A stretch of 64,000 nt of DNA from Dictyostelium discoideum (Eukaryota). Made by a program: the position numbers and the translations under genes. The stretch spans positions 4,608,001 to 4,672,000 of the forward strand of contig CM000153.2 in NCBI GenBank assembly GCA_000004695.1, read 5' to 3'. Shown here piece after piece: positions 5,580 to 63,958 of the stretch; position 1 is the first letter of the stretch, and each line of letters begins with the position of its first letter. The notes under the pieces were generated by a model, which worked only from the letters and a program-made list of their open reading frames with translations, was not told where the DNA came from and ran no database searches.

Positions 5580-5869
5580 CAACAGTAACAATGAAATTGA
5601 AATTGGACCAGCGACACCATCAAAAGAAGAATTACTATTTAGATTGGAGAGAAAGAGAGAGAAAGCATTAGAAGAGAATGATACAATTTTAGCTAACTTA
5701 TTAAAACAAAGACAAATTGAATTGGAACAGTCACAAGAAGAAACTTTCATATTCAAAGGTGGTATTGTTTTAGCACATAGAAATGAAAAATGGGAATTAT
5801 TAGAAGCGCCAATACCAAAGAATTCTTCAAAAACACCTTATCATCAAGATAATAGACCAAATAATAATA

Positions 5870-5956
<87 letters not shown>

Positions 5957-7491
5957 TTCAACAATCACCATCAATTTCATCAATTAATATATCACAACAA
6001 CAATCACAAACATCACCTGTAATAATACCTCAATCAATGACATCATCTATTTTCGATGGTTTAACAAAAGTTTTTAATACTGTCAGTTCTGTAGTTGAAC
6101 CAAAATTAGACCAATTATTGGATTCATCTTTATTGGGTGGTAGTGGTGGTAATGGTAATAACAACAATAAACAACATGAACAATTACAAAAAGAGAAACA
6201 ACAAGAAAAACAAATTTTAACAAGTTTAGAAAAGATTGAACAACAACAGCAACAAATTAATAAGATACCAATTGAAGAATTAAAATTATCAAATAATCAA
6301 ATTCAAGAGATTTATATTAAACCTTTAAAGAAGTCAATATTTGATATTGCAAATTATTTCGGTCAAAATAGTAATCATACAAAATTGGAACAATATTCAT
6401 TGGGCGATGATGCTATCAATAAAAAGATTGCAATTTTAGTACGTGGTAGATTAGCAACTGCTATCGCAAATTTAGTATCACATGGTTTCATAGTTTCACC
6501 AACTAATATGGTTGGATCAATATTTAGAAATGTAATCAATGGTGCTACTGGTAGTGGTGGTGGTGGTAGTGGTGGTGGTAATAGTCTATCAAGCAGTTTA
6601 GGTAATATAGTTACAGGTAAACGTCATCTTTGGGAATTCATTGAAAATTATAAAAAAACAACACAACATGGTACAATCGCAGGTATAAGTTTGATTCAAA
6701 CCATTAATACAATCAATTCATTTGAAAATATTTCATCCGCTTGGAAAGATCCAAATATTAAATTTAGAACTTTAATTTGTGTTGGTTTAAATCAACATGT
6801 CCTTGATCAATGGTTTGCTTTACTTCAAACTGATACAAATGGTATCTCTCATTATTTCCATCCAAATGCTATCATTAATTCATTGGATCATTGGAGATTG
6901 TTTTGTCAATGTTTTGCTCCAATCTTAAATTTACCATTTAAATTATCTTTAGATTATGAATGTAAATTTATAAATTCTCCAATAATTAATAATGGTATTG
7001 CAAGAAATTCAAATTCTCCATCAATTAATTCTTCAGCATATGGAATAACAACAACACCAACAACAACAACAATAACAAATTCTTCACCATTTTTGTCATC
7101 AATTCCAACACCAAATGTTGGAAATATTAAAAGTCAATTGGCAAGTTTTTCAAATACATTAATAGATGGTACTTCAACTTTATTCACAGAGTTGTCTGAA
7201 AACACTAATAGTTTAACTCAATCAATTCATTCAAAATACTCAAATTTAACAAATTCAATGTTCCAATCTTCAAATGAAAATAATGATACCAGCATCAATA
7301 ATAACAGTAATAATGATAATAATAACGATAATTTATCATCAAGAAAAAGAGTAACTTTCTCTGAGGATGGTGAGATTCAACATGGCCATCAACAACAACA
7401 ACAACAACAAAATGGTAATATGCTTGAAAAAATCCAATCATCAATTAAACCACTTTCTCAAAAGATTGGTGAATATTTTGATGGCTATTAA
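3232..7491 (+). CDS. Two-exon gene (exon 1 3232-3364, intron 3365-3538, exon 2 3539-7491; about 1361 aa). It has an N-terminal PH-like domain split by the intron, a long KEKE/charged coiled-coil region, poly-Q/N/T tracts and a C-terminal RUN-like domain.
   Basis: Exon 1 (MNGDESNLHNNDIIDEGKFKIYKQGNKTYWYKIDIYQSLLSWYE) ends at a GTGAGT donor. An AT-rich 174-nt intron ends in ATAG. Splicing is in-frame (phase 1, codon aaa) into ...KRDDESATSFLMVHQ..., which continues a PH-like fold (FIFSYSKERDAFIESLKK). The C-terminal block KKIAILVRGRLATAIANLVSHGF...WFALLQ...HWRLFCQCF resembles a RUN domain, but that assignment is tentative. Confidence 0.6.
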
Positions 7492-7802
7492 GTAATAGAA
7501 AAATAATAAATTGTTACTTTTTTTTTTTTAAAATAAATATTTTTAATTTTGGTATCAAGCCAAAAACCATTCTATTTTTTTTTTTTGGGTGTTTACTTTC
7601 AACAAAAATATCTTGTTAATACTAATATTTTATTTATTTATAGTTATGTTTAAAACAAAACTACAATTTAAAATAATTATTAAATAATTAATAAGTATTA
7701 AATTGTTTAATTAATAGTTTATTTATTTAAATACTACTTTATTAATAACTTTATTAATTTTATTAAATTTTTTAAACTCATAAAAATAATTTTATTAAAC
7801 AC

Positions 7803-7925
<123 letters not shown>

Positions 7926-8197
7926 GTCCTTGACACAAACATTTTTTAATTTATATATTTTATTTAATTCACATAAACTTTTTTTTTTGTTTTTATGAAA
8001 TTTTTATTTATTATTTTCAAATTATCCGTTCATTTCATTTGATTTCATTTGATTTCATTTGATTTGATGAAATGAACAGATAACTTTAAAAAAATATTTT
8101 ATTTGAAAACACCATTATTATTCTTATATTCTTTATTAAATTCTCCAAGAAAAAAAAAAAAAAAAAAAAAAAATTAAATATGGTAAAATTAAAAAAT

Positions 8198-11100
8198 TTA
8201 TTTTTTAATTTTTAAAATTTGTTCTTTAATAATTAAATAAAGTTGAGATAATTGATCAGGATCTGTGATATGAATACAATGTTGAGATCTATAATCTACA
8301 GATTTAATTCTTTGAAGATGTTCAAAGTGTAATAGTAAACCGTCTGGAGTGATTTCACAAGATTTAATATTCTCAAAAGTTGAAGACCATCTGAATGAGT
8401 AGCTATTCTTTATTTGTTTAACAAGGAGAATACGAAGATTTGTTATTAAAGTGATATAATTCTTTACGCCACCATTATTGAAATGAATGATATAGGTATC
8501 GGAATTTTTGAATCTACCCTTGAAAGTTGTTTCCAAAATGTAGTGACCCTCTGATTGTTCGAAATTATATTCAACCAAAAGATTATCGGTACCAAAACAA
8601 CGTGGTGGTCTCATTCTAGTTGTGTCTTTAAAGAGATTAGTTGTATTTCTTATTCCTTCGGTGGTCATTGTAACCAAATCGAATACACCGACTACGGGTT
8701 TGACAGCAACACCAACCACACCCTGCGCCATACCTTTGGCGAAACCTTCAATACTACCTTTGATAGCACCTTCGATTGGTTTGGTTACAACGCCAGTGAC
8801 ACCATCGATTACACCTTTACCAAGACTTTTGAAACCATAGACCACACCTTCACCTAAATGTTTTGCTTTCTTTTGACGTGATCTTTGACGATTTCTAAGG
8901 TATTGATCATCGAATGATAATATTGCAACACCTTTACCAACGGTGTTTGATAGTTTCGATAGAGTATTAAATAAACCATAAACTGAATTTTTCACTAAAC
9001 TAATACTACCTTTTGCTAAACCTTTGCCAAAATCTTTTGGAGAAGTTATTAAACCTAATGCAGGTTCATAAAAGAAATCTTTTACACCAGTACCAATATG
9101 ATTGAATAAACCAACTGGGTTACCAATATTATCTGATGAACCTATCACCTTGTATAATTGATTCAATGATTGCATAGTATAATGTGATTTAATTCTACTT
9201 GCAAATAAACGTTCCGATAAGAATGGATGCTCCAATATCAATGCATTCAAACATAATGGTGTTCTATCTAAACCAAATGAAACACCAACAACTTCTAATA
9301 AAATACCAACGAAATCTGAATTTGAATGACCAACAAATCCATCTCTAACAAATGAAAATGATAATATAACTTTAATTGGATTTAATAATAATAATTTAAT
9401 ATAAATCATTGATTTCTTTTTCTTTTTCTTTGTTAAATTATTATTATTATTATTATTATTTGATGAAATTGCTGAATTTGAAGTTGGTAATAATAATGGA
9501 TCACTTGAAATTGGTTCAATATCATTTAAAAGTTGAATTTTTGATTTTTCATCATTTAATATAAATGGTGAATTAATTGGATTATTTTGAATTTCATTAT
9601 TTTGTTGTTGTGGTTGTTGTTGTTGTGGATTTTGTTGTAATTGTTGATTTTTTTTATGTTTTTTAAAGTTTTTATCTAATTGTTTAATTTTTGTAATTGT
9701 TTCAATGATTGATGCTAAAATACTATCATCCAACATTAAATTAACCTCTTGAATTAATAATGATAAAAGTTCAAAATATTTTAAACCTTTCTTTTCTTCA
9801 TTTTTAATAAAACTAAAATGTAAGAATGGTTTTGGATCTTGTTCTTCATTGTTACTATTATTTGTATGATAAAAGAGGACAGGATAATCAGTATTCATCA
9901 ATTGATTATCAATTTGCATATTGGTTACAATCAATTCAAATCTTGAGAAAATGTTTGATAATGAGAATGATAATGATATATCATTCAATGATAGATAAAT
10001 CAATTCTTTACTATTATGGTCAATTAAGGATACACCAATTCTTGGTAATGATAATTGTAAATCCAATTTACAATTTTCAACAGTTTGTGATAACTCTGAT
10101 GATGAATCATCCTTTGGTTGATCATAAGATAATACCAATACACGTGTTGGTCCATCAACTTTCATAAATGAATAAATTGTATTGGTACCTATTTTAATTG
10201 GTTTAAAATTTTTAATTTTCATAATATTACAATCTAATATTACACTTGATGAAGAGTATGATGATTCAAATGTTGAATGATTTTCAATATATTGATTATT
10301 ATTATTATTATTATCATTATTTATATCATTAGTTGAATTTGTTGTTGTTGTGGTTGTGGTGGTTGTTGTTGAAGAAATTTCAAGACGTAAAATTTTTGTA
10401 CCTAGTAATTCATCCCAAATATAATCAATTGATTGATATGGTGGTAAAATATCAATGATTGAAGTACCAATTTGATAGAATTTAATTGAACGTGGAATTT
10501 GATTTTCAATTCTAAATGGTGAATATTCTGTATCTTGATCATAGAAATGAATACTTGTATGAGTATCATTATCTTTAATATCGACTCTACCAAGATATGG
10601 TTTTGGAACTTCCATTAGGTTTAAGGATCTTTGTTTCACAGTTAACTCTGCTAAATCGTCAATTGTAAAACTACCACTCCAATCATAGTAATCATCATCA
10701 AATTTAATTTGAATTAATTTTTCACCATGTCTATTTGGCCAATGGAATGGTTTTGATTCACCTGGTTCAATTGATTCAATTCTATAGGATTGTCCAATTT
10801 GTCTATATAACATTCTTCTTGAACTTTTATTTATGAAAATATATTGGAAATTAATTGTTACCATCTTTGTACGTTGTAATTTATTTTTACCCATACTAAT
10901 TGATGCTCTAAAATTATATTCTCTATTATCACTATTTGATTTTAATTTACTTAAATTTATTGATGATGATGATGATGGTGGTGATAATGAGTTACTAGTA
11001 TTGTTATTACTATTTCCATTATTTATATTATCATTACTACTATTATTAAAAGTAGATGAATAAAATGGGTCTTGATGATGATTTGTAGAATTATTTGAAT

Positions 11101-47552: not shown

Positions 47553-48260
47553 TTATATTATTATTAACAATAATATTATTGTTAATAATAATAATAATAA
47601 ATTTAATTTATTAATTTTTTTAAAAAATAATGATGGCGGTGATGATATTGATGTTGATAAACTATTAAATTGAAAATGCCTAATTTCTTTTAAAATTATT
47701 GAATTTGATTTAAATGATTTTATATTTCTATTATCACATGCTTTACAATTTTCATTACATGATTTAAAATAAATTATATCACCCTCTTCTGAACAATAAT
47801 ATTTTTTATTACCTTCAAGACAAGTATTATTTGAAAATGATTCAACTGTTGTAACTTCTTTTGATAATTTTATAACATAATTACATAATCCATCCAATAG
47901 TATTGGGGAGGTTGTATTTGAAATATTTATAATTACTGATGAATTATCATCATATTTAATACACTTATTTAAGTCATAGAATATTATTGGATTGTAATTA
48001 TCGCAATGGGAATCTTGACTAATGAATATGTTGGGTGAGTATCCTAATCTTTCTATTTCACCTTTATTTATATCACCAACTTTCATATATAACCCATCCT
48101 TTTGACATGGTGTTATGGTTTTTATAAATGTTGCATTACCTTTACATTCGAAATTATTATTTTCATATACAAAAAATGAAATCTTATATCCATTTATTTT
48201 TATAACAAATATTAATAATAATAATATAATATTATATATAAAATTTATTTTAATCATCAT
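47553..48260 (-). CDS. Cys-rich type I membrane/secreted protein (signal peptide, 12+ Cys, C-terminal TM). A paralog of the gene at 62086-62910.
   Basis: A 235-aa ORF with N-terminal MMIKINFIYNIILLLLIFVIKING, a CKG...C...C pattern shared with the 62086 ORF, and a C-terminal LLLLLLTIILLLIII. Confidence 0.45.
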   Translation of the reverse strand: MMIKINFIYNIILLLLIFVIKINGYKISFFVYENNNFECKGNATFIKTITPCQKDGLYMKVGDINKGEIERLGYSPNIFISQDSHCDNYNPIIFYDLNKCIKYDDNSSVIINISNTTSPILLDGLCNYVIKLSKEVTTVESFSNNTCLEGNKKYYCSEEGDIIYFKSCNENCKACDNRNIKSFKSNSIILKEIRHFQFNSLSTSISSPPSLFFKKINKLNLLLLLLTIILLLIII

Positions 48261-49115
48261 TCATTAATTAAAAATTGACAATAAATAATTAATATTAAAA
48301 ATAAAAATAAAAATAAAAATAAAAACAAAAAATAAAAATAAAAATAAAAATAAAAATTATATTTGAAAAAAAAAATAAATAAATAAATTAAATAAATTAA
48401 ATAAATAAAAATAAAAAAAAAAAAAAAAAAAAAAAAGTGTATGTGTGTGTCTATTTTAAAAAATTATTTTTATCACTCTGTAAAAATATTTTTAATTCAT
48501 TCCAAAACTCATAATTAACAAAAGATAAAAAATTTAGATATGTATATAAAAATAAAATTTATTATTTAAATAATAGATTTCAATTTATTGGCAAAATAAC
48601 CTCTTTTTTTTTTATATTAAATAAAAAAAAAAAAAAAAAAAAGAGTATTTATATTAGGTTGTGATGGTAATAAATCAAAAAAACTTATTACTACATAAAA
48701 ATTATTAAATTTTATTTTTTAATTGAAAAATTGTTCTTTTTTTTTTTTTTTTTTATTTTTTATTTTTTTTTTTTTTTCCCCAATACTTAATTTAATCTAA
48801 ATTGGTGAATTTAAAAATAAAAATAAAAATTAAAAAAAATTAAAAAAAACACCTCACTCATTTTTTTGGGTGTGGAAATGAGATTTAATCTTATTATTTT
48901 TAATTTTTTTTTATTTAAAAAAATTAAATTTGGGAAAATAAAAAAAAATTAAGCACATTAATATTTTTTTTTTTTTTTTTTTTTATTCTTATTTTATTTT
49001 TATCCTTTTTGAACACTAAATTATTATTTTTTTTATATATATCAAACACACACTTCACACACAAACACAAACACCATTTTAAAACATAACATTTCTTTTT
49101 TCCTCTCACCACGCA

Positions 49116-49529
49116 ATGTTTTCTCCCAGGGATAGTTTCAATTTCTTTGATGACCCAACTTTTGGTATTAACCTCCAACCTCTCACAACGACGTATGTTG
49201 AAGTGGAAGATTTGGAAAATGATATCAAAAGATTATCAAGTCTGTTCTATGAAGAGACTGTTCATCTTAGTTATAAATTACCCAATTCTTTAAAGAAGTC
49301 TCGAAATTTCTTACAACCATACCTTAATATTAAACCTATTAAACATTCAAGACAAAACTATACACAATTAACAAACTATATAGACCAATCAAAAGACTTA
49401 GTTCAAGAGTGTAAGTCTTGTTTTAGTGATAATGTTGGTGTCAATGATATATTAAGGGATATACTGCGTGATATGGATAGGTTAAAGGTACATTATTGTT
49501 CAGATGGTGGTATATTTTCATCTTTATAG
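49116..49529 (+). CDS. A-family small protein, copy 1 (137 aa). Unrecognised, tandemly amplified family.
   Basis: MFSPRDSFNFFDDPTFGINLQPLTTTYVEVEDLENDIKR...HYCSDGGIFSSL. The ORF is maintained in 4 diverged copies with in-frame indels and clustered non-synonymous changes. Confidence 0.55.
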   Translation: MFSPRDSFNFFDDPTFGINLQPLTTTYVEVEDLENDIKRLSSLFYEETVHLSYKLPNSLKKSRNFLQPYLNIKPIKHSRQNYTQLTNYIDQSKDLVQECKSCFSDNVGVNDILRDILRDMDRLKVHYCSDGGIFSSL

Positions 49530-49852
49530 TTAATACTATAAAAATGGATTTATGCAATCATATTTTAATTTTTACTATTTATATATTCTTTATTTCATTC
49601 TTTTTTTTTTTTCTCTTTCTCTTTTATTTTTGTTTTTTTTCTTTTGTGTAACAAAAATACAAACTTCCAAAACTAAAAAAAAGTAAAAAAACAAAATCAA
49701 ACAAAATCAAACAAAATCAAACAAATAATTTAAAAATCAAATACAAAATCAAAAACAAAGGTAACAGAAAAAATGAAAAAAAAAACAAAATGAAATAAAA
49801 AATATATAAATAATAAAAAAAAAGTTTATCAAACAATACAAATTAAAAATAT

Positions 49853-49914
49853 CCTTCCTTCTAATCAACTTTCAATGTATGAATATACATTGAAGGTTGA
49901 TTAGAAGGGAGGAT
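49853..49914. repeat. Long perfect or near-perfect hairpin / inverted-repeat element (about 24-bp stem, 4-nt loop), with a second short hairpin just downstream. Copies recur in other units.
   Basis: ccttctaatcaactttcaatgtat gaat atacattgaaggttgattagaagg, with one G-T mismatch. It is followed by caatgtatcggatacatt (a 7-bp stem with a G bulge in the right arm). The same element sits at 52299-52360 and, diverged, at 59523-59580. Confidence 0.7.
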
Positions 49915-50467
49915 ATTCAAATCAAATCCCAATGTATCGGATACATTCCTTAGTTAGAATGAAGGGTTTTCTGTTTAGTTTAAAAGAAAAGTGAAATTCT
50001 GTTGCAATATCGATATCTGGTGTCTTAGAGTCAAACTATTTTCTCAATGGCATTCCAATCAATTTCCAAAATACATTCCAGTTTTTCAATCAAAGAAATT
50101 CTATAAATAAACCATTTTAATCCTCTTAAAAAATATTGTTTTGATTTTTTTTTTTTTTTTTTTGATTTTTTTTTTTTTTTAGTTAAATTACTCCTATTAT
50201 TTAAAAAATATTTTTTAACTTCCTTTTATCATTTTTAAAATAATAATTATACCAAAATGTATTTTTCATTTTATAATAGTGAAAATAAAAAATCATTATT
50301 GATGGAATATATTTTAAAAAATGAAAGGACAAAACTAATCCATTTTTTTTTTTTTTTTTTAAGAATATTGGTTTTTTTTTTTTTTTTTTAATCTTATTCA
50401 TAATAAATAGAATAAAATAATAAATACTAATATCTTTTTTTTTTAATTATATCTTTATATTTTTTAA

Positions 50468-50718
50468 AATTAAATGGTGAACTAATAACATTGCAAATCA
50501 AGGCAAATGCAAATAATGTATATGAAAGTGGTGATCAATGTGGTAATTCAACATTTACTTCATTTAATTACAATAATAATAATGTTAAAACATTTATTAC
50601 AATGTCACCTCATCCTGGTAATGTAGTTGAATTTTATAAATATTATACAAATTTTAAAATTAATGGAATTAATTTCAACAATTTCACAAAATGTAAATTA
50701 AATAAAAAAATTAAATAA
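50468..50718 (+). pseudogene. 5' fragment of the B-family (Asn-rich membrane glycoprotein) gene, unit 1.
   Basis: It encodes ...LNGELITLQIKANANNVYESGDQCGNSTFTSFNYNNNNVKTFITMSPHPGNVVEFYKYYTNFKINGINFNNFT, then breaks off into (AAAAT)n and an antisense fragment of the 47553 gene. Confidence 0.5.
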
Positions 50719-50749
50719 AATAATAATAATAATATAATAAAATAAAATT

Positions 50750-50822
50750 AAATAAAATAAAATAAAATAAAATAAAATAAAATAAAATAAAATAAAATAA
50801 AATAAAATAAAATAAAATAAAA
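50750..50822. repeat. (AAAAT)n microsatellite.
   Basis: Direct reading: aaataaaataaaat... about 14 copies. Confidence 0.9.
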
Positions 50823-51531
50823 TAATACAATTGTAACTTCTTTTGATAATTTTATAGCATAAATTAAAATTAAAATAATTCTTGAAAAAAAAAAAATTAA
50901 ATAAATATATAAATAAATAAATAAAAATAAAATTGAAAATAAAAAGTGTATCTGTGTCTATTATAAAAATTAATTTTATCAATCTGTAAAAATATTTTTA
51001 ATCAATTTTAAAACTCATAATTAACAACAGATAAAAAATTAAGATATGCATATATATAAAAAAAAAATTATTATTATTATTAAATAAAAGATAACAAATT
51101 AACCTTCTATTTATTACTATATAAAATTTTTTATTTTACATGAATAATTGGTTTTTTTTTTTTTTTTTTTTATTTTTTTTTTTTTTTGTTTAATATCAAG
51201 ATTGGTGAATTTAAAAATAAAAATAAAAATTTAAAAAAAATTAAAAAAAAACACCTCACTCATTTTTTTGGGTATGGAAATGAGATTTAATCTTATTATT
51301 TTTTTTAATTATTTTTTATTTTTATTTAAAAAAATTAAATTTGGGAAAAAAAAAAAAATTAAGCACCACATTAAGGGTTTTTTTTTTTTTTTTTTTTTAA
51401 TTCTTTTTTTATTTTTATCCTTTTTGAACACTAAATTAAATTAATTATTATTTTTATATATATATATATATATATCCAACACACACACCATTTTTAAAAA
51501 ATAACATTTCTTTTTTCCTCTCCACCACGCA

Positions 51532-51945
51532 ATGTTTTCTCCCAGGGATAGTTTCAATTTCTTTGATGACCCAACTTTTGGTATTAACCTCCAACCTCTC
51601 ACAACGACGTATGTTGAAGTGGAAGATTTGGAAAATGATATCAAAAGATTATCAAGTCTGTTCTATGAAGAGACTGTTCATCTTAGTTATAAATTACCCA
51701 ATTCTTTAAAGAAGTCTCGAAATTTCTTACAACCATACCTTAATATTAAACCTATTAAACATTCAAGACAAAACTATACACAATTAACAAACTCTATTGA
51801 CTATGCAAAAGTCTTTGTTCAAGAGTGTACGGCATGTTTTGATGATAATGTTGGTGTCAATAATTTATTAAGGGATATACTGCGTGGTATGGATAGTTTA
51901 AAGGTGCATTATTGTTCAGATGGTGGTATATTTTCATCTTTATAG
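51532..51945 (+). CDS. A-family small protein, copy 2 (137 aa).
   Basis: Near-identical to copy 1 through residue 85, then diverges (TNSIDYAKVFVQECTACFDDNVGVNNLLRDILRGMDSLKVHYCSDGGIFSSL). Confidence 0.55.
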   Translation: MFSPRDSFNFFDDPTFGINLQPLTTTYVEVEDLENDIKRLSSLFYEETVHLSYKLPNSLKKSRNFLQPYLNIKPIKHSRQNYTQLTNSIDYAKVFVQECTACFDDNVGVNNLLRDILRGMDSLKVHYCSDGGIFSSL

Positions 51946-52298
51946 TTAACACTATAAAAATGGATTTATGCAATCATATTTTAATTTTTACTATTTATAT
52001 ATTCTTTATTTCATTCTTTTTTTTTTTTTCTCTCTTTTATTTTTGTTTTTTTTTGTTTTTTTTTCTTTTGTATATAACAAAAATACAAACTTCCAAAACT
52101 AAAAAAAAGTAAAAAAACAAAATCAAACAAAATCAAACAAAATCAAACAAAATCAAACAAAAAATTTAAAAATCAAATACAAAATCAAAAACAAAGGTAA
52201 CAGAAAAATTGAAAAAAAAAAAAAAAAAAAAAAAAAAATGAAATAAAAATATATAAATAATAAAAAAAAGTTTATCAAACAAAACAAATTAAAAATAT

Positions 52299-52360
52299 CC
52301 TTCCTTCTAATCAACTTTCAATGTATGAATATACATTGAAGGTTGATTAGAAGGGAGGAT
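52299..52360. repeat. Hairpin element, unit-2 copy.
   Basis: Identical sequence to 49853-49914. Confidence 0.7.
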
Positions 52361-52592
52361 ATTCAAATCAAATCCCAATGTATCGGATACATTCCTTAGT
52401 TAGAATGAAGGGTTTTCTGTTTAGTTTAAAAGAAAAGTGAAATTCTGTTGCAATATCGATATCTGGTGTCTTAGAGTCAAACTATTTTCTCAATGGCATT
52501 CCAATCAATTTCCAAAATGCATTCTAGTTTTTCAATCAAAGAAATTCTATAAATAAACCATTTTAATCCTCTTAAAAAATATTGTTTTGATT

Positions 52593-52635
<43 letters not shown>

Positions 52636-52920
52636 TTCAATTACTCCTATTATTAAAAAAATATTTTTTAACTTCCTTTTATCAATTTTAAAATAATAAT
52701 TATACCAAAATGCATTTTTCATTTTATATAAGTGAAAATAAATAATCATTATTCATGGATTATATTTTAAAAAATGAAAGGACAAAACTAATCCATTTTT
52801 TTTTTTATTTTTTAAAATTTTGTTTTTTTTTTTTTCATCTTATTCATAATAAATAGAATAAAATAATAAATACTAATATCTTTTTTTTTTTTTTTTTTTA
52901 ATTTTAGCTTTAAATTTTTT

Positions 52921-53382
52921 AAAATTAAATGGTGAACTAATAACATTGCAAATCAATGCAAATGGAAATAATGTATATGAAAGTGGTGATCAATGTGGTA
53001 ATTCAACATTTACTTATAATTCAATAAATGCAATTTCTTATTTTGAAACAATTAAAGTATATAATCAAACCTCAAAAATTTAAATTTATCCACATTGAAA
53101 TTACTTTAGATGACTCTTTATAAAATTGGTAATCCATTAATACTTTTTCAAAATAAAATTGAAATTTCGCCTTTAAATCAAAAATCTAAAAATGTAATCA
53201 TTGATGATTCTTCAATTAATAACAATAATAATAATAATAATACTAAAACATTTATTACAATGTCACCTCCTCCTGGTAATGTAGTTGAATCTTATAAATC
53301 ATATACAATTTTTAAAATTAATGGAATTAATTTCAACAATTTAACATTTACAATTGTAACTTTTGATAATTTTATAGCATAA
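52921..53382 (+). pseudogene. 5' fragment of the B-family gene, unit 2, with internal stop(s).
   Basis: KLNGELITLQINANGNNVYESGDQCGNSTFTYNSINAISYFETIKVYNQTSKI* ... MTLYKIGNPLILFQNKIEISPLNQKSKNVIIDDSSINNNN...KTFITMSPPPGNVVESYKSYTIFKINGINFNNLTFTIVTFDNFIA*. Confidence 0.5.
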
Positions 53383-54032
53383 ATTAAAATAAAAATAATA
53401 TTTGAAAAAAAAAATTAAATAAATATATAAATAAATAAATAAAAATAAAAATAAAAATAAAAAAAAAAGTGTATGTGTGTCTATTTTAAAAAATTATTTT
53501 TATCGCTCTATAAAAATATTTTTAATTCATTCCAACTCATAATTAACAACAGATAAAAAATTAAGATATGTATATATATAAAAAAAAAAATTATTATTTT
53601 TATTTAAATAATAGATAACAAATTAACCTCATTTTTATTACTATATAACAGTAAAAAATAATATTAACACTTTTTTTTTAAAAAAAAAAAAAAAAAAAAA
53701 ATAATAAAAAAAAAAACTGATCACTTAATTTTAGGTGAAAAAAAAAAATAAAAAATAAAAAAAAATAAAAAAAAAATATATATTTTGTTAAGGAATTTAC
53801 AAACAACAAAAAAAATTAATTTTTTTTTTTTTTTCTATTTTTTTTTTTATTTTTTTTATTTTTTTTATATTCACCTAAAATTTTTTTTTTTTTCTCATTT
53901 TTTTTTTTTTTTTTTTTTTTTTATAACACTATAATTAAATTAATAATAATAAAATAATAAAATAATTTAATTGTTTTTTTATATATCAAAAACACATATA
54001 TAATATTTTAAAACTCAAACTTTTCTACTACA

Positions 54033-54341
54033 ATGTCTTCTCAAGAAGGTGACCTTCCCCCTCTCAGCGATTACCCAGATGCAACTAAAGTGGATGAATT
54101 ATGGTGTAAAATCATTGCCCAATCAACTACTCCCCTTGAAATAACCAATTTATTGAACCAGTTTTCCCATTTCTTAAAGCCATGCCAAGTTAACTCACTT
54201 TCAAAGAACCCACAAACGAAAAAATTACTAGAACATTTAGAAAAGTGTAGGGGCCCATGTAATAATGATAATACCAACAATTTATTAAGCGATATGATAC
54301 AGAATGTCCAAAATTTAATTATATTATTAATGATCCCATAA
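54033..54341 (+). CDS. Divergent small ORF occupying the A-gene slot of unit 3 (102 aa). A possible distant A-family member.
   Basis: The ORF MSSQEGDLPPLSDYPDATKVDELW... is followed by the same conserved downstream block (tatagttaactactataaatatggatttatgcaatcac) as the A genes. Its C-terminal NLLSDMIQNVQNL resembles the A-family NNLLRDILRDMDRL. Confidence 0.3.
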   Translation: MSSQEGDLPPLSDYPDATKVDELWCKIIAQSTTPLEITNLLNQFSHFLKPCQVNSLSKNPQTKKLLEHLEKCRGPCNNDNTNNLLSDMIQNVQNLIILLMIP

Positions 54342-54901
54342 AGCAATAATAATTATATCATGTAATGGTATATTTTCAACTTTATAGTTAACTACTATAA
54401 ATATGGATTTATGCAATCACTATAGTTTAATTTTTATTATTTAAATTTTATTTATATAATATTTATTTCATTCTTTTTTCTTTGTTAACAAAAATACAAA
54501 CATCCCACACAATACAAAATCAAAAACAAAGATAAAAGAAAAACAAAAAAAATGAAATAAATAATATATAAATAATAAAAAATTAAATAATAAAAGTCAA
54601 ACAAATTAAAAATATGCTTTGATACATTCGTTTGTTACAAGGAGGGATTTTCTGTTAAATTTCGTTGCAATATCTGGTACCTTAGAGTCAAACTATTTTC
54701 TTGGTGTCATTCTAGTCAATTACCTAAATGTTTCCTGTTTCAATCAAAGAAATTCTCTAAATAAATTTAAAAACCTTACAAAAACTTTTTTTTTTTTTTT
54801 TTTTTTTTTATTTTATTTTATTTTTTTTTTTAATTTTAATTATCCATAATAATCAATCAAAACATTAAAAAAAAAAAAATAAAAAAAAATAAAATGATAA
54901 C

Positions 54902-55198
54902 ATGTATATATATATTTTTTTAATTTTAACTTTTTATTTTTTAAAATTAAATGGTGAACTAATAACATTGCAAATCAATGCAAATGGAAATAATGTATAT
55001 AAAAGTGGTGATCAAAGTGGTAATTCAGCATTTAAATGTAATTCAATAAATGATGCAATTTCTTATTTTGAAACAATTAAAGTATATAATCAATCATTGA
55101 TGGCACCGATTAATAACAATAATAATACTATTAAAATATTTATAACAATATCACCTCTCCTCCTCTTGGTAATATGGTTGAATAAAAATAAAAAATAA
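54902..55198 (+). pseudogene. 5' fragment of the B-family gene, unit 3 (signal peptide plus first domain only).
   Basis: MYIYIFLILTFYFLKLNGELITLQINANGNNVYKSGDQSGNSAFKCNSINDAISYFETIKVYNQSLMAPINNNNNTIKIFITISP.... Confidence 0.45.
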
Positions 55199-55745
55199 AA
55201 AGTGGTTGTGTATCAATCTTAAAATTTTATTTTATCACTCTGTAAAAATATTTTTAATTCATTCCAAAAATCATAATTAACCACAGATAAAAAAAATATA
55301 TTGTTTAAATAATAGATATTTTATTACCAATTAACCTCACTTATTTTGCTATATAAAAAGTGTTGATTTATATTATTACTTTAAAAAAAAAAAATAATAA
55401 CATTGGGATTTAATTTTATTTTTTACTCCAAAAAATTATCATTATTTTTTTTTTTTTTTTTTTTATAATATTAAATTAAAAAAAATAAATAAAATTAAAA
55501 AAACATGTTCTCTTATTTTTTTGGGTTAAAATGAAAATGAGATTTAATTTAATTATTTTTTTTTTCCACTCCCAAAATTTTTTAATTTTTTTTTATTTTT
55601 TTCATTTTTAAATTTTTTTTTTTTAGACACCATTTTTTTTTTTTTTCATTCCTTTTTTTATTTTCATCCATTTTGCACTATAATTATTATAATTATTTTT
55701 AAACACACACACTATTTTAAACATTTCTTTCCTTTCTTCCACGCA

Positions 55746-56138
55746 ATGTTTTCTACCTGGAATTTCTTTGATGACCCTCCTGGTATTAACCTCGAACCTC
55801 TCACAGCGACCTACGTCGAAGTGGAAGGGATAGAGAATGATATCAAGAGAGGATCGAGTCAATTCTATGAAGATACTGTTCATCTTTGTTTTAAATTACC
55901 CAGGTTTTTAAAGAAATCTCGCAATTTCTTACAGCCGTACCTTGATATTAAACATTCGAGACTAAACTATACACAATTAACAAACTCTATAGACTATTCA
56001 AAAGTCTTTGTTGAAGAGTGTATAGCATGTTTTGGTGATAATGTTGGGGTCAATAATTTATTAAAGAATATTCTGCGTGATATGGATAGGCTAAAGGTAC
56101 ATTATTGTTCAGATGGTGGTATATTTTCATCTTTATAG
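55746..56138 (+). CDS. A-family small protein, copy 3 (130 aa, with in-frame deletions relative to copies 1 and 2).
   Basis: MFSTWNFFDDPPGINLEPLTATYVEVEGIENDIKR...HYCSDGGIFSSL. Confidence 0.55.
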   Translation: MFSTWNFFDDPPGINLEPLTATYVEVEGIENDIKRGSSQFYEDTVHLCFKLPRFLKKSRNFLQPYLDIKHSRLNYTQLTNSIDYSKVFVEECIACFGDNVGVNNLLKNILRDMDRLKVHYCSDGGIFSSL

Positions 56139-56228
56139 TTAAAACTATAAAAATGGGTTTATACAATCATAGTTTAATTTTTATTCTTTATTATTACTAT
56201 TTCATTCTCTTTTTTTTACTTTCACCTT

Positions 56229-56285
<57 letters not shown>

Positions 56286-56439
56286 TTACAAAATACAAAC
56301 ATCACACACAACAAAAAATAACAAAAAACCAAAACAAAATCAAACAAAATCAAACAAAATCAAATATGAAGGGTAAAAGAAAAAATGAAAAAAAAAAAAA
56401 ATAATCAAAAAAGTCAAACTATACAAATTAATAATATCC

Positions 56440-57560
56440 TTCCTTCTAACCAACCTTCATTGATATATCCGACGATAATACACCGAATGTTCAACAGAAG
56501 GAAGGAATTCAAATCTACCTCAATGTATCCTACGAGGATACATTGCGAGCTCCCAAGGATATTCAAATCTATCTCATTAGAATGAAGGATATTCAAATCT
56601 ACCCCAATGTATCCTATGAGGATACATTGCGAGCCCCCAAGGATATTCAAATCTATCTTCAATGAATCCGATGGATAATATTGGACACTCATTAGAATGA
56701 AGGATATTCAAATCAACCCCAATGTATCCTACGAGGATACATTGCGAGCCCCAAGGATATTCAAATCTATCTTCAAAGTATCCAATTGATAATACCTTGA
56801 AAACTAATTAGAATGAAGGATATTCGCCCCAATCTTCAATGTATCCGATAGGATACATTGAACCCTCTCAAGAAGGATATTCAATCTATCCTCAATGTAT
56901 CCAATTGATAATACCTTGAACACTCATTAGAATGAGGGATATTCAAATAAACCTTCGATGTATCCGATAGGATACATTGAACCCTCACCGAAATGATATT
57001 CAAATCTATCTTCAATATATCCAATGGATAATATATTGAACACTCAGTAGAAGGAAGGATATTCAAATCAACCTTCAATGTATCTGATACATTGAACCCT
57101 TATCAGAAGGATATTCAGTCTATATTCAATGTATCCGATGGATAATACATTGAACACTCAATAGAAGGAAGGATATTCATATCAACCGGTCAGATACATT
57201 GAACACTCATTAGAATGAAGGATATTCAAATCAATCTCCAATGTATGGGATAAATTCATCGGTTAGAAGGAAGGATATTTAATCAACCTTCAATGTATTC
57301 GATCGGATACATTTAACGCTCACTAGAAAGAAGGATATTCAAATCAATATCCAATGCATCCCATCGGCATACAGAACGCTCACTAGAGAAGGATATTCAA
57401 ATCAACCTCCAATGTATTGGATACATTCGTTGATTTGGGTCCTTCTCTAGTGAGCGTTCAATGTATGCCGATGGGATGCACTGAACGCTGATTAGAAGGA
57501 AGGATATTCAAATCAATGCCAATGTATGGAATACATTCATTGGTTAGAAGGAAGGATTTA
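56440..57560. repeat. Satellite-like array of about 20 tandem, hairpin-forming 52-63 bp units. There are two alternating subtypes, giving a higher-order repeat of about 115 bp, and a palindromic inversion centre near 57430. The array is derived from the single hairpin element of the other units.
   Basis: Units begin with ggatattcaaatc and contain the palindrome caatgtatcc...ggatacattg. The subtypes are ...ccccaatgtatcctacgaggatacattgcgagccccaa and ...tcttcaatgtatccaattgataataccttgaacactcattagaatgaa. Near 57372-57458 the arms acgctcactagagaagga / tccttctctagtgagcgt form a larger inverted repeat. GC content is markedly above local background. Confidence 0.8.
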
Positions 57561-57949
57561 AAAACAGAAAAAACTAAAAAAAGAAAAGTGAAATTCCATG
57601 TGCCTTGGAGTCAAACAATTTTCCCATTGAAATTCCAGTCAATTACCAAAATGCATTGCTGTTTCAATAAAGAAATTCTCTAAATAAATTTCAATACCAT
57701 TTTAATCCTCTTAATCAAAACAATAGTTTTTTTTTTTTTTTTAAATTAGTCCTTTTAGATTTTATTAAATAAAAAATATTTTTTTAACATCCATTTAATA
57801 ATAATAATTAAACCAAACGTATTTTTCATCATTAATAATAAAAAATGAAAAGACTATTTTTTTTTTTTATTATTATTCATATTAAATAGTATAAAATAAT
57901 AAATAATAATATCTTTTTTTTTTTAATTTTTAACTTTTTATTTTTTATA

Positions 57950-58400
57950 ATTAAATGGTGAACTAATAACATTGCAAATCAATGCAAATGGAAATAATAT
58001 GAAAGTGGTGACCAATGTGGTTATTCAACATTTACATGTAATTCAATAATTAATGCAATTTCTTATTTTAAAAAAATTAAAGTATATAATCAATCCTCAG
58101 AAATTTAAATTTATCAACCATTGAAATTACTTTTAGATGATTGTATATATAAAATTGGTAATCAATAATATTTTTTCAATATAATATTGAAATTTTGCCT
58201 TTAAATCAAAAATCTAAAAATGTAATCATTAATGATTCTTCAATTAATAACAATAATAATAGTATTAAAACATTTATTATAATATCACCTCCTGGTAATG
58301 TGGTTGAATCTTATACAATTTTTTAAACTAGTGGAAATAAATTCAACAATTTCACATTTACAATTGTAACTTCTTTAAATAATTTTTAACATAATTACAT
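57950..58400 (+). pseudogene. Degenerate 5' fragment of the B-family gene, unit 4, fused to an antisense fragment of the 47553 gene.
   Basis: attaaatggtgaactaataacattgcaaatcaatgcaaatggaaataat... with frameshifts. It ends in ataattacataatccatccaatagtattgg, the reverse complement of the 47553 CDS segment encoding GLCNYVIKLSKEVTTV. Confidence 0.4.
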
Positions 58401-58464
58401 AATCCATCCAATAGTATTGGTGGGGTTGTATTTGAAATATTTATTTTTTACATGTATAAAATTG

Positions 58465-58523
<59 letters not shown>

Positions 58524-58772
58524 CTAGTATGAATTTAAAATAAAAATTAAAAGCAATTAAATTAAAAAATCACTTCTCTCATTTTTTTAAGTTTTGTGTA
58601 AAATATCTCGAGATTTAATCTAATTATTTATTTTTTTTTTTTTTTTTTTTAATTTTTAAATTTTTTTTTTTTTTTTTTTCACCTTTAAATTTGATTTTTT
58701 TTTTTCATTCTCTTTGAATAAGACCTTACTGTTTTAATTTTAATATTTCTTTTTTTCCCATCCACCACGGCA

Positions 58773-59159
58773 ATGTTTTCTCCCGGGGATAGTTTCAATT
58801 TCTATGATGACCCAACTCTTGGTATTAACCTCCAACCTCTCACAACGACGTATGTTGAAGTGGAAGATATAGAGAATGATATCAAGAGAGTATCAAGTAT
58901 GTTCTATGAGGACACTGTTCTTCTTAGTTATAAATTACCCGAGCATTTAAAGAAATCACGTAATTTCTTACAGCCATACCTTGATATTAAACATTCAAAA
59001 TTAAACTATACACAACTAACAAACTCTATTGACTTTGCAAAAGTCTTTGTTAAAGAAGGTATAGCTTGTTTTGGTGATAATGTTGGTATCAATAATTTGT
59101 TAGAAGATATATTGCGTGATATGGATAGGTTAAAGGTATATTATATTGAAATAGTGTAG
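58773..59159 (+). CDS. A-family small protein, copy 4 (128 aa, altered C-terminus).
   Basis: MFSPGDSFNFYDDPTLGINLQPLTTTYVEVEDIENDIKR...DMDRLKVYYIEIV*. Confidence 0.5.
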   Translation: MFSPGDSFNFYDDPTLGINLQPLTTTYVEVEDIENDIKRVSSMFYEDTVLLSYKLPEHLKKSRNFLQPYLDIKHSKLNYTQLTNSIDFAKVFVKEGIACFGDNVGINNLLEDILRDMDRLKVYYIEIV

Positions 59160-59431
59160 CATATTTTCATTTTTATAGTTAACATTATAAAAATGGATTT
59201 ATGCAACAATATTTTAATTTTTATTATTATTTTAATTTTTATATTATTTATTTCATTCTTTTTTTTTCTTCTTTTTTTTCTTTATTTTTTTCTTTTTTTT
59301 GTTTGTACTTCCCACACAACAACAAAAAAAAAAAAAACAAAAACAAAAAAATAACAAAAGATAACCAAACAAAATCAAACAAAATCAAACAAAATCAAAT
59401 AAAATCAAAAACAAAGGTAATAGAAAAAATG

Positions 59432-59468
<37 letters not shown>

Positions 59469-59522
59469 AAATATATAATATATAAATAATAAAAAAAGTT
59501 TATCAAACAATATTAAAAATAT

Positions 59523-59580
59523 ACTTCCTTCTAATCAAACTTCAATGTTTGGATACATTGAAGGTTGATCAGAAGGAAGA
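59523..59580. repeat. Hairpin element, unit-5 copy (diverged).
   Basis: cttccttctaatcaaacttcaatgtttggatacattgaaggttgatcagaagg. Confidence 0.6.
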
Positions 59581-60006
59581 ATATTCAAATCCCAATGTAT
59601 CGGATACATTCCTTGGTTAGAATGAAGGGTTTTCTGTTTATTTTAAAGAAAAGCGAAATTCTGTGGCAATATCGACATCAGGTGCCTTAGAGTCAAACTA
59701 TTTTTTCAATAACATTCCAATCAATTTTCAAAATGCATTCCAGTTTTTCAATCAAGGAAATCCCCTAAAATAAATTTAAATACCATTTTAATACATAAAA
59801 ACTGTAACTTTTTTTTTTTTTTTTTTTTTTTTTAGTTCAATTACTCCTATTTTATTAAAAAATATTTTTTAACTTTCTTTTACCATACCAAATGTATTTT
59901 TCATTTTAAATGTAATGAAAATCATTATTTGAAGAATATATTTTAAAAAATGAAAGGACAAAACTTACCCAGATTTTTTTTTTTTGGATTTTCAAGAAAA
60001 AAAATA

Positions 60007-60037
<31 letters not shown>

Positions 60038-60475
60038 GAGTAAACTTTGTCTTTTTAAATTTTATTAAATAAAAAAATATTTTTTTAACATCTATTTAAA
60101 TAATAATTAAACCAAATTTATTTTTCATCATTAATAATAAAAAATAATTATTATTCAAACAATTTATTTTAAAATAAAATGGAAAGACGATTTTTTTTGA
60201 GGTTTTATAGAAAACCTTCATTTTCTTGAAACACACAATTTTATTTATTTTTATTTTTATATTTTTAAATTTTTTTTTTTTGGGTTTTAAAGAAAAACCA
60301 TCTTTTTCCCAATAACTACAATTTTATTTATTTTTATTTTTATTTTTTTTAATTTTTTTTTTGGATATTTTCTTAAAAACAGACCATTTTGATTTTATTT
60401 TCTATTTTTTTTTTTTTTTTTTTATTTTAATCATTCGATCGAAACATTAAAAAAAAAAAAAAAAAAAATTATAAA

Positions 60476-61993
60476 ATGATAAAATATATTTTTCCATTTT
60501 TTTTAATTTTAACTTTTTATTTTTTAAAATTAAATGGTGAACTAATAACATTGCAAATCAATGCAAATGGAAACAATGTATATAAAAGTGGTGATCAGTG
60601 TGGTAACTCAACATTTACATGTAATTCAATAAATGATGCAATTTCTTATTTTGAAACAATTAAAGTATACAATTAATCATCAGAAATTCAAATTTATCAA
60701 CCATTGAAATTACTTTTAGATGATGGTATTTATAAAATTGAAAATCAATTAATACTTTTTGAATATAATATTGAAATTTCACCTTTAAATCTAAACTCTA
60801 AAAATGTAACCATCGATGGTACCTCAATTTATAACAATAATAATAATAATATTAAAACATTTATTACAATATCACCTCCTACAGGTAATATAGTTGAATC
60901 CTATAAATCCCATAGCATTTTTAAAATTAATGGAATTAATTTCAATAATTTCACATTTACAATAATTTACATTTATAAAACTTATTTAAATGTAGTAGGA
61001 TCATTTGAAAATTGTAATTTTAATAATTTTAAAAGTGAATTTCCAATGTTTTACCTAATTAATAATAATAATAATAACATAATAAGTAATTTATATTATA
61101 ATATAAATTCATCATTTGCTTTAACGAATTGTTCAATGATCAGTAATTCAAATATAGGTTATAATTCATCTATAATTAATAGTAAAAAATTCAGTGTACT
61201 TATTTATCGATCAAAATTCCAATCAATTAATGAATGTAATAATTTTGGTTACTTTTATGATAGTTCTCGATTAACAATTTATAATAGTTCAATAAATAAT
61301 AATAATTGTAAAATAATTTTCAATATAAATAAAATTAATAAGTTAGATGTATTCAATACAAAATTTGAAAATAATAATGGAACAATATTCAATATTAAAT
61401 TTAATTCAAATGAAGGTTTAATTTCAATTAAAAATAGTAGCTTTATCAATAATTATGGTGGTAGTATTATTAATTTAGAATCAAATAATAATATTCCTTT
61501 TGAAAATTTAAAAAAAAATCCACAACTATTTAGAGACTCTACATTTTTTAATAATTCATTCAATGGAAATGGAAGTATAATTAATTCAATTGGTGCTTAT
61601 TTTATTGTTTCTGGTGAATTTGAAAATAATAAAGCATTAAATCACCAAGGTGATTTATTTTATTTACAAGATAGTTATTGTTTAATAGAAGATTCAAAAA
61701 TAAATCAAGTTAATAATTTACCAAGTGGTAAAGGTTCAATAATTTATTTACAAAAATCAGAATTAGAAATATCAAGTGGTAATTTCAAACTAGATGGTTC
61801 ACTTGTTTGTAATTCTTCAAAAATAAAACTTTTACGAAATACAATTGTTTTTAAACCTACTATTGACTGTCAAAATTGTACCTTTAATAACAATAATTAT
61901 TGTGAACTTAATTTTGGAATAAAAAATAAAATATCAATTCTTTTAAATTTAATAATATTATTACTATTATTATTATTATCACTATCAATATAA
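60476..61993 (+). CDS. Full-length B-family gene: an Asn-rich, heavily N-glycosylated type I membrane protein with beta-helix-like (PbH1-type) repeats and a C-terminal TM. The single reading frame is interrupted by one in-frame TAA at 60674-60676, so it is a possible recent pseudogene or a sequencing error.
   Basis: The ORF-track ORFs 60476-60676 and 60704-61993 are in the same frame (codon starts 2 mod 3), separated by one taa. The downstream part has no ATG for 112 codons. The product has a signal peptide MIKYIFPFFLILTFYFLKLNG, then repeats such as NSSFINNYGGSIINLESNNN and FENNKALNHQGDLFYLQDS, and a C-terminal [20 protein letters not shown]. Confidence 0.5.
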
Positions 61994-63664: not shown

Positions 63665-63834
63665 ATGACAATTCTAACCAAACCTCACCAATTACAAAAT
63701 TGTGAAAAATTCCATCCATGGGCAAAAACATGCACATCATCAGCATCACAAATTTGGTTTGCAGTATTCCTTGCAGGTTTAAAACTATACGCACCATTAT
63801 TTTTAGTTCCTGCATTAATATTTAAAAGAAAAAG
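63665..63834 (+). CDS. First exon of a TMEM135-like (peroxisomal membrane protein) gene. The rest lies beyond the window.
   Basis: MTILTKPHQLQNCEKFHPWAKTCTSSASQIWFAVFLAGLKLYAPLFLVPALIFKRK, followed by a GTAATA donor at 63835. The NC.....HPW...C.......W......L..Y.PL.L...L.KRK pattern matches my recollection of the TMEM135 N-terminus. A read-through stop occurs 1 codon after the donor. Confidence 0.4.
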
Positions 63835-63859
63835 GTAATAAATTTCATACAAACAACAA

Positions 63860-63958
63860 TAAACAAACAAACAAACAAACAAACAAACAAACAAACAAAC
63901 AAACAAACAAACAAACAAACAAACAAACAAACAAACAAACAAACAAACAAACAAACAA
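63860..63958. repeat. (CAAA)n microsatellite (about 25 copies), intronic or intergenic.
   Basis: Direct reading. It generates the spurious minus-strand ORF 63685-63954 (FVCL repeats). Confidence 0.9.

Follow-up and report, generated by a model that had tools for sequence, protein, structure and literature searches.

A five-unit tandem segmental-duplication array in Dictyostelium discoideum and its probable founding by one illegitimate duplication

Chromosome 4 of Dictyostelium discoideum carries a cluster of repeated gene fragments within the 64,000-nucleotide stretch analyzed here (contig CM000153.2, positions 4,608,001 to 4,672,000; hereafter the window, with a GC content of ~22%). Between two genes for cysteine-rich proteins, Cys1 (DDB_G0286787) and Cys2 (DDB_G0286589), at ~48.3 to 61 kb, five units stand head to tail, each consisting of shared upstream blocks, an open reading frame (ORF) of a family designated A, a spacer, and the 5' part of a second gene, designated B. 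We hold with confidence that these units form a tandem segmental-duplication array that arose by one illegitimate founding duplication and was then remodeled by unequal homologous recombination, patchy gene conversion, and deletion. Three features of the locus point to such an array: the head-to-tail repeats span several genes, they share a novel junction, and the outgroups are single copy, with relatives of variable copy number.

Organization of the array

The layout of the units was mapped by gapped self-BLAST of 46 to 64 kb together with tblastn (Table 1), and the map bears out the five-fold tandem duplication proposed in an earlier note on this DNA. For instance, 48271-51124 matches 50649-53648 with an expect (E) value of 0, and further self-matches pair 48707-50389 with 58435-60028 and 55442-56412 with 58494-59456. 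Because similarities between units have E values down to 0, chance is excluded as their source. Consecutive A ORFs start 2416, 2501, 1713, and 3027 bp apart, close to the unit lengths that had been claimed, and the units diverge from each other by 12-35% in pairwise comparison. Position 60963, the breakpoint equivalent in full-length B, was taken as the end of unit 5.

Other parts of the earlier description need amendment. The same blocks were said to recur in every unit, but unit 3 has neither the hairpin nor the (CAAAATCAAA)n tract; the tract, described as having a 6-nt period, has a measured period of 10 (AAACAAAATC). Units 1 and 2 had been called nearly identical, but they share 88% identity over aligned columns and are mosaic, in that tracts of 100% identity (the first ~260 bp of A and the hairpin) adjoin diverged tracts. 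This mosaic is best explained by gene conversion.

Junctions between units

The junctions record how the array began. At three of the four interunit junctions (50826, 53354, and 58364, designated J1, J2, and J4), B is joined to antisense Cys1 at the same point, ACAAT being followed directly by TGTAAC; in longer form, all three read ...ACATTTACAAT and then TGTAACTT.... Intact B at 60963 passes from ACAAT into AATTTAC (...TTCACATTTACAAT and then AATTTACATT... in longer form), and the plus strand of Cys1 at 47849 reads ...TTCAACTGT and then TGTAACTTCTTTTG.... The novel junction differs from both intact sequences at the join point, and the microhomology between B and Cys1 there amounts to 0-1 nt.

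The Cys1 relic is longest at J4, where 58364-58444 (82 bp) matches 47849-47930 in plus/plus orientation at 94% identity, as evidenced by self-BLAST (E = 6e-29). Those at J1 (50829-50866) and J2 (53354-53386) are shorter, at 31-39 bp. Beyond the relics, homology resumes in the intergenic region between Cys1 and A, at ~48340 for J1 and J2 and at ~48710 for J4. At J3 (~55180), there is no Cys1 relic; the end of the B fragment, the breakpoint, and the relic have all been removed by deletion. Given one shared breakpoint followed by three different downstream deletions, we conclude that there was a single founding duplication, whose junction was then copied between units and eroded.

The earlier note had recognized on the minus strand of Cys1 the peptide GLCNYVIKLSKEVTTV, which is indeed coded at 47844-47891, and it had left room for the possibility that the junction fragments would fail to match the gene at 47553 when properly aligned; they do align to Cys1. 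Its statement that each B fragment runs into antisense Cys1 applies to J1, J2, and J4 but not to J3, where the relic is lost. Moreover, the junctions are built not from three genes but from two, B and Cys1, with A as interior cargo.

A microsatellite, (AAATA)26 at 50695-50825, has expanded inside the end of the first B fragment, directly before the conserved junction.

Comparison of strains and species

Orthologous loci were fetched from eight other assemblies by exact-protein look-up. A chromosome-level assembly of the reference lineage, GCA_054883475.1 (ACTFIT), has the same five units and is 99.3% identical to the window. The differences, at 48413-48416, 52594-52600, 56231-56254, 58466-58477, and 59432-59440, are homopolymer lengths or G/T calls beside homopolymers and seem to reflect noise of the sequencing technology, not true variants. 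Two further D. discoideum assemblies, ACTFIR and ACTFIW, differ from the window by ~10% in the DNA flanking the array and have three units each, colinear with window units 1, 4, and 5; the second junction in each corresponds to J4, with the same relic but with a microdeletion of 22 bp across the breakpoint. The idea that the locus is hypervariable relative to its flanks was considered and rejected, with flanks of ACTFIT and ACTFIR/ACTFIW ~89-90% identical and the array 82-85% identical.

Two strains assigned to D. cf. discoideum have fewer units. ACTFIY (L005) has two degenerate ones at 7224-10000 (reverse-complement coordinates), in the order Cys1, degenerate B fragment, breakpoint-deleted junction, frameshifted A-like sequence, unit-3-like spacer, and B without its 5' part; the first unit has no A and no spacer. 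The A/B module of this strain is in decay throughout. The single unit of ACTFIZ (L004) combines an intact B of 529 aa with an A of 105 aa that is very diverged.

The outgroups are single copy. Two D. citrinum assemblies (L007 and L009) have the simple arrangement Cys1(-), A(+), B(+), Cys2(-), and in L009 Cys1, A (130 aa), B (504 aa), and Cys2 are all intact. D. dimigraforme (ACTA71; L008) has one copy of each gene, and its A, at 5796-6197 on the plus strand of the locus, lies between B and Cys2 and is inverted compared with the order in D. citrinum and D. discoideum; from this position, the D. dimigraforme A gene itself appears to have been relocated or inverted. The comparison across strains and species suggested in the earlier note thus yields 5, 3, 3, 2, and 1 units in the D. 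discoideum group and 1 in both D. citrinum and D. dimigraforme, counts that rest on assemblies, of which the two of the same lineage agree. The ancestral order that had been predicted, a Cys-rich gene (-) followed by A(+) and B(+), is carried by both D. citrinum assemblies and by ACTFIZ.

Relationships among the units

In a neighbor-joining tree of A coding sequences (FIR and FIW denoting copies from ACTFIR and ACTFIW), {A4, FIR2, FIW2} is recovered at 100%, {A5, FIR3, FIW3} at 96%, and {A1, A2} at 94%, with D. citrinum and D. dimigraforme splitting off before any of the D. discoideum copies. Synonymous divergence (dS) is 0.037 between A1 and A2, lower than the 0.086 between A1 and its orthologs, which is in turn lower than the 0.25-0.46 among paralogs; between strain orthologs it is 0.09-0.24. 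A tree of the spacer block that follows the hairpin gives the same orthology; in it, unit 3 and ACTFIY group together and lie basal to every unit that bears a hairpin. These trees suggest that at least three units predate the split of the sampled D. discoideum strains and that unit 3 represents the oldest lineage, not an intermediate. Unit 2 appears to have been copied from unit 1 in the reference-strain lineage only (window and ACTFIT).

Proposed history

The sequence of events would begin with a single-copy ancestor, Cys1(-), A(+), B(+), Cys2(-), the arrangement displayed by the outgroups. One illegitimate tandem duplication of ~3-3.5 kb, reaching from the middle of Cys1 to ~0.5 kb into B, would then have joined B (...TTTACAAT) to antisense Cys1 (TGTAACTTC...). 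The join itself can be read in the DNA, and end joining or template switching may have produced it. Next, the spacer of one daughter unit would have gained a local inverted and tandem duplication that gave rise to the hairpin and to a 57-bp repeat, and the hairpin-bearing unit would have produced the lineages of units 1, 4, and 5 by unequal homologous recombination before the sampled strains diverged, as the orthology trees indicate.

Later changes would have gone in both directions. The reference lineage (window and ACTFIT) probably gained unit 2, the sister of unit 1, and ACTFIR and ACTFIW most likely lost the old unit 3 by unequal recombination. Identical tracts shared between units are the pattern that gene conversion would leave, and at least three different deletions would have removed the truncated 5' part of Cys1 from the junctions. 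The net outcome would be the multiplication of orphan gene A, with B fragments and Cys1 relics as dead by-products. Repeated unequal crossing-over, put forward in the earlier note as the mechanism, fits these later steps but not the founding event, a non-homologous join with hardly any microhomology. Likewise, the locus was described as actively expanding; it does gain units, but it also loses them.

Several observations weigh against this history. The clade {A1, A2, FIR1, FIW1} is weakly supported, probably because of conversion. J3 and the ACTFIY junction do not carry the diagnostic breakpoint, and it is by position that they would share an origin with the other junctions. The distance of A3 from the other A copies exceeds that of the D. 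dimigraforme ortholog, which a duplication postdating the D. citrinum split would hardly explain unless A3 evolved very fast or entered by introgression; descent from an old paralog may be another explanation. In addition, the ages of the events rest on short, conversion-prone sequences.

The extreme divergence of A3 would be accommodated if a multi-unit array were ancestral to the D. discoideum/D. citrinum/D. dimigraforme complex and the single-unit loci were secondary collapses by unequal crossing-over, a history that we regard as improbable. Unequal recombination can cut an array to one unit without a scar, and within D. cf. discoideum, ACTFIY already has two degenerate units and ACTFIZ one. 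Nevertheless, four single-unit loci in three taxa would need separate collapses, none of the four holds a B fragment or Cys1 relic, and A1, A2, A4, and A5 form one clade that excludes the A genes of D. citrinum and D. dimigraforme.

It is more improbable still that each unit was made separately, whether by a mobile element or by recurrent independent illegitimate duplication. Dictyostelium genomes are rich in transposons, and the inverted repeats of the spacers superficially resemble the ends of miniature inverted-repeat transposable elements, but one breakpoint is used again at three junctions, as recombination between units would predict and as independent events would be very unlikely to produce. 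Pfam searches of A1, A3, and B (the other A copies being paralogs of A1) returned no transposase, reverse transcriptase, or integrase, and a transfer RNA (tRNA) scan found no tRNA gene in the window. No other copy of the hairpin sequence was found in the 64-kb window or the outgroup loci, and it can be derived from the ancestral spacer still present in unit 3 and ACTFIY. A transposable element was accordingly rejected as a classification for the repeats, there being no such domains, tRNA targets, or copies outside the array in the window or the related loci.

Finally, the worry raised in the earlier note that fewer units were over-expanded during assembly of the reference deserves almost no credence, although extreme AT-richness, long homopolymers, and microsatellites are hard to assemble, because units that differ by 12-35% are not copies of one sequence, two further strains have orthologous three-unit arrays, and GCA_054883475.1 is an independent assembly with the same five units, which removes the concern and leaves the array standing.

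Table 1. Coordinates of the array, its genes and gene fragments, and its spacer elements in the window
Feature	Coordinates	Strand	Remarks
Cys1, DDB_G0286787	47553..48260	-	Signal peptide, Cys-rich region, C-terminal hydrophobic tail; left border and relic donor
Cys1 donor segment	47849..47930		Recurs in direct orientation at junctions; left end, 47849, is the founding breakpoint
Unit 1	48261..50825	+	A1, (CAAAATCAAA)n, hairpin, B'1, (AAATA)26
Unit 2	50826..53354	+	Opens with J1 and relic; A2, hairpin, B'2
Unit 3	53355..55180	+	Opens with J2 and relic; A3, short ancestral-type spacer, B'3
Unit 4	55181..58364	+	Opens at J3 (relic deleted); A4, 57-bp satellite, B'4
Unit 5	58365..60963	+	Opens with J4 and longest relic; A5, degraded hairpin, 5' part of B
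A1	49116-49529	+	ORF/tblastn; first exon of DDB_G0286585
A2	51532-51945	+	ORF/tblastn; DDB_G0286587
A3	54033-54341	+	ORF/tblastn; highly diverged, 102 aa
A4	55746-56138	+	ORF/tblastn
A5	58773-59159	+	ORF/tblastn
B'1	~50422-50692	+	tblastn; internal deletion
B'2	52893-53354	+	tblastn
B'3	54902-55180	+	tblastn; CAA where B of unit 5 has TAA
B'4	57884-58364	+	tblastn
Full-length B, DDB_G0286791	60476-61993	+	Predicted signal peptide, right-handed beta-helix, C-terminal hydrophobic helix
(CAAAATCAAA)n tract, unit 1	49688-49725		Repeat analysis
Hairpin, unit 1	49848-49917		70 nt
Hairpin, unit 2	52294-52363		70 nt
Hairpin, unit 5	59518-59585		Degraded copy
Satellite, unit 4	56496-57545		~18 copies of 57-58 bp, with a short palindrome in each
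146-nt hairpin, unit 4 satellite	57345-57490		-91 kcal/mol, stem of ~65 bp
Cys2, DDB_G0286589	62086..62910	-	Right border of array

Gene A

By its pattern of conservation, A appears to be a real, fast-evolving orphan gene, predicted to be helical and confined to the D. discoideum/D. citrinum/D. dimigraforme complex. The protein has 128-137 aa and no signal peptide. From D. dimigraforme to D. discoideum, it keeps the motifs KKSRNFLQPYL and NLLxDILRDMDRL and an open frame, with a ratio of nonsynonymous to synonymous divergence (dN/dS) of ~0.3-0.6, or ~1 in the unit-1 lineage. When the A alignment was searched as a profile against 1.84 billion representative proteins, the only matches were two clusters, which come from D. 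citrinum and D. dimigraforme. With A, B, and Cys1 as queries, word-indexed searches for homologs led to no locus but this one in the D. discoideum complex. An AlphaFold2 model of A, of modest confidence, consists of three long helices (predicted local distance difference test score of 64), and Foldseek with this model returned a generic helical bundle and no solved-structure match at an E of <= 0.001. Pfam searches of A1, A3, B, Cys1, and Cys2 gave nothing above threshold.

The array carries four conserved A ORFs and the very diverged A3, which is marginally A-like: its match to the A profile is confined to the C-terminal motif (E of 0.0075 in a two-sequence search), and it keeps only the FLKP and NNLLSDM motifs, with flanks that are still 66-73% identical to other units.

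Public gene models in this region are chimeric. DDB_G0286585 (200 aa; 49116-50718) splices A1 to the dead B'1 across a ~1-kb "intron," and DDB_G0286587 (156 aa; 51532-52360) and ACTFIT_005327 have a terminal exon that extends across the hairpin; exons of several new-assembly models traverse it as well. These chimeras are probably prediction artifacts.

Gene B

B is predicted to be a surface beta-helix protein. The earlier note held that the last unit alone keeps an intact B gene. Full length is indeed found only there, but in the window and in ACTFIT the reading frame contains an in-frame TAA at codon 67 (60674-60676), where ACTFIW codes for Gln and B'3 retains a sense codon. The AX4 and ACTFIT gene models excise this stop by means of a 99-nt (33-codon) GT-AG "intron," 60621-60719, the equivalent of which is ordinary coding sequence in other strains. 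In the window lineage, B is either a pseudogene or a case of intronization.

Flanking genes

Orthologs of Cys1 are present in all strains and species compared. The two Cys-rich genes do bracket the array, as had been claimed, but their paralogy is distant (27% identity over 130 aa; E of 0.002). In a comparison with the CfaA_B_C family (PF11912), Cys2 scored 17.8 bits against a gathering threshold of 28.6 and Cys1 had no match, so neither was placed in that family. The public annotation describes the Cys1, A1, A2, B, and Cys2 models as hypothetical proteins throughout. Further along, a minus-strand "ORF" at 63685-63954 is an FVCL repeat that runs through a (GTTT/GTTTGT)-type microsatellite and is almost certainly no gene.

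Spacer hairpins and satellite

The spacers of several units contain strongly self-complementary DNA. In units 1 and 2, the hairpin forms 33 of 33 base pairs on the plus strand, with a folding energy of -48.4 kcal/mol. The z scores of stability are -12.5 for this 70-nt hairpin and -15.4 for the 146-nt hairpin in the satellite of unit 4, and no shuffled sequence folded as well. ACTFIR and ACTFIW carry hairpin and satellite in their orthologous units; both elements are absent from unit 3, both D. cf. discoideum strains, D. citrinum, D. dimigraforme, and the rest of the 64-kb window. Unit 3 and ACTFIY keep the unduplicated seed sequence of the hairpin, so the hairpin formed in place, through inverted and tandem duplication of the spacer.

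The hairpins and satellite, which are specific to the units of D. discoideum sensu stricto, are candidate sources of small RNA. Like the microRNA (miRNA) loci of D. discoideum (Liao et al. 2018, PMC6161686; NAR 2024, PMC11014262), they are intergenic and form very stable hairpins; unlike typical miRNA precursors, their stems are much longer and more perfect. The hairpin arms were not found in the supplementary files of PMC6161686 or PMC11014262 or by full-text search, and an Rfam search of 46-64 kb returned only generic plant-precursor matches far below gathering scores. Strand asymmetry of folding was considered as a sign of a plus-strand RNA and set aside, as it was inconsistent across copies. 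Between the window and ACTFIR, all four stem substitutions in the unit-1 hairpin keep plus-strand pairing through G-U pairs, which is not significant (p ~0.06).

A bolder proposal is that a palindromic 57-bp satellite specific to this lineage was born and amplified in the array and that its long hairpins would be transcribed and diced into small RNAs. Growth of the array would then have given D. discoideum sensu stricto a new regulatory or silencing RNA locus, with the A genes or the array itself as possible targets. We consider this unlikely.

Comparison with known systems

The 2005 genome paper of D. discoideum reportedly describes tandemly clustered gene families, and the array can also be set beside arrays in other organisms. 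Yeast CUP1, for instance, is a tandem array whose copy number varies by unequal (non-allelic homologous) recombination (PMC12637435). Arrays of the CUP1 type resemble the present one in their head-to-tail units of a few kilobases, shared junction, differences in copy number between strains, and patchy homogenization. The present array differs from them in that its founding illegitimate junction can be read, its single-copy ancestor is kept in sister species, and its cargo is an orphan gene with no known selective agent.

Laboratory stocks of D. discoideum contain large segmental duplications of at least 15 kb (Bloomfield et al. 2008, PMC2643946). These occur in the same organism, with duplication a common form of variation, but the units here are 2-3 kb. 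Because at least three units appear to predate the divergence of strains that are ~10% apart in their flanks, the array is likely to be natural and old. A literature search by gene identifiers and hairpin arm sequences found no paper on these genes.

Concluding remarks

The mechanism proposed here is an ordinary, textbook one and leaves current understanding unchallenged. What sets the locus apart is that it is an unusually legible record of the birth of an array, with its founding junction, single-copy sisters, and intermediate copy numbers. The array also explains and corrects the public models DDB_G0286585 and DDB_G0286587, and it draws attention to the unverified 99-nt intron on which DDB_G0286791 relies. 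For the biology of D. discoideum, the dosage of the orphan A family varies 1- to 5-fold among isolates, which could matter for strain-specific phenotypes.

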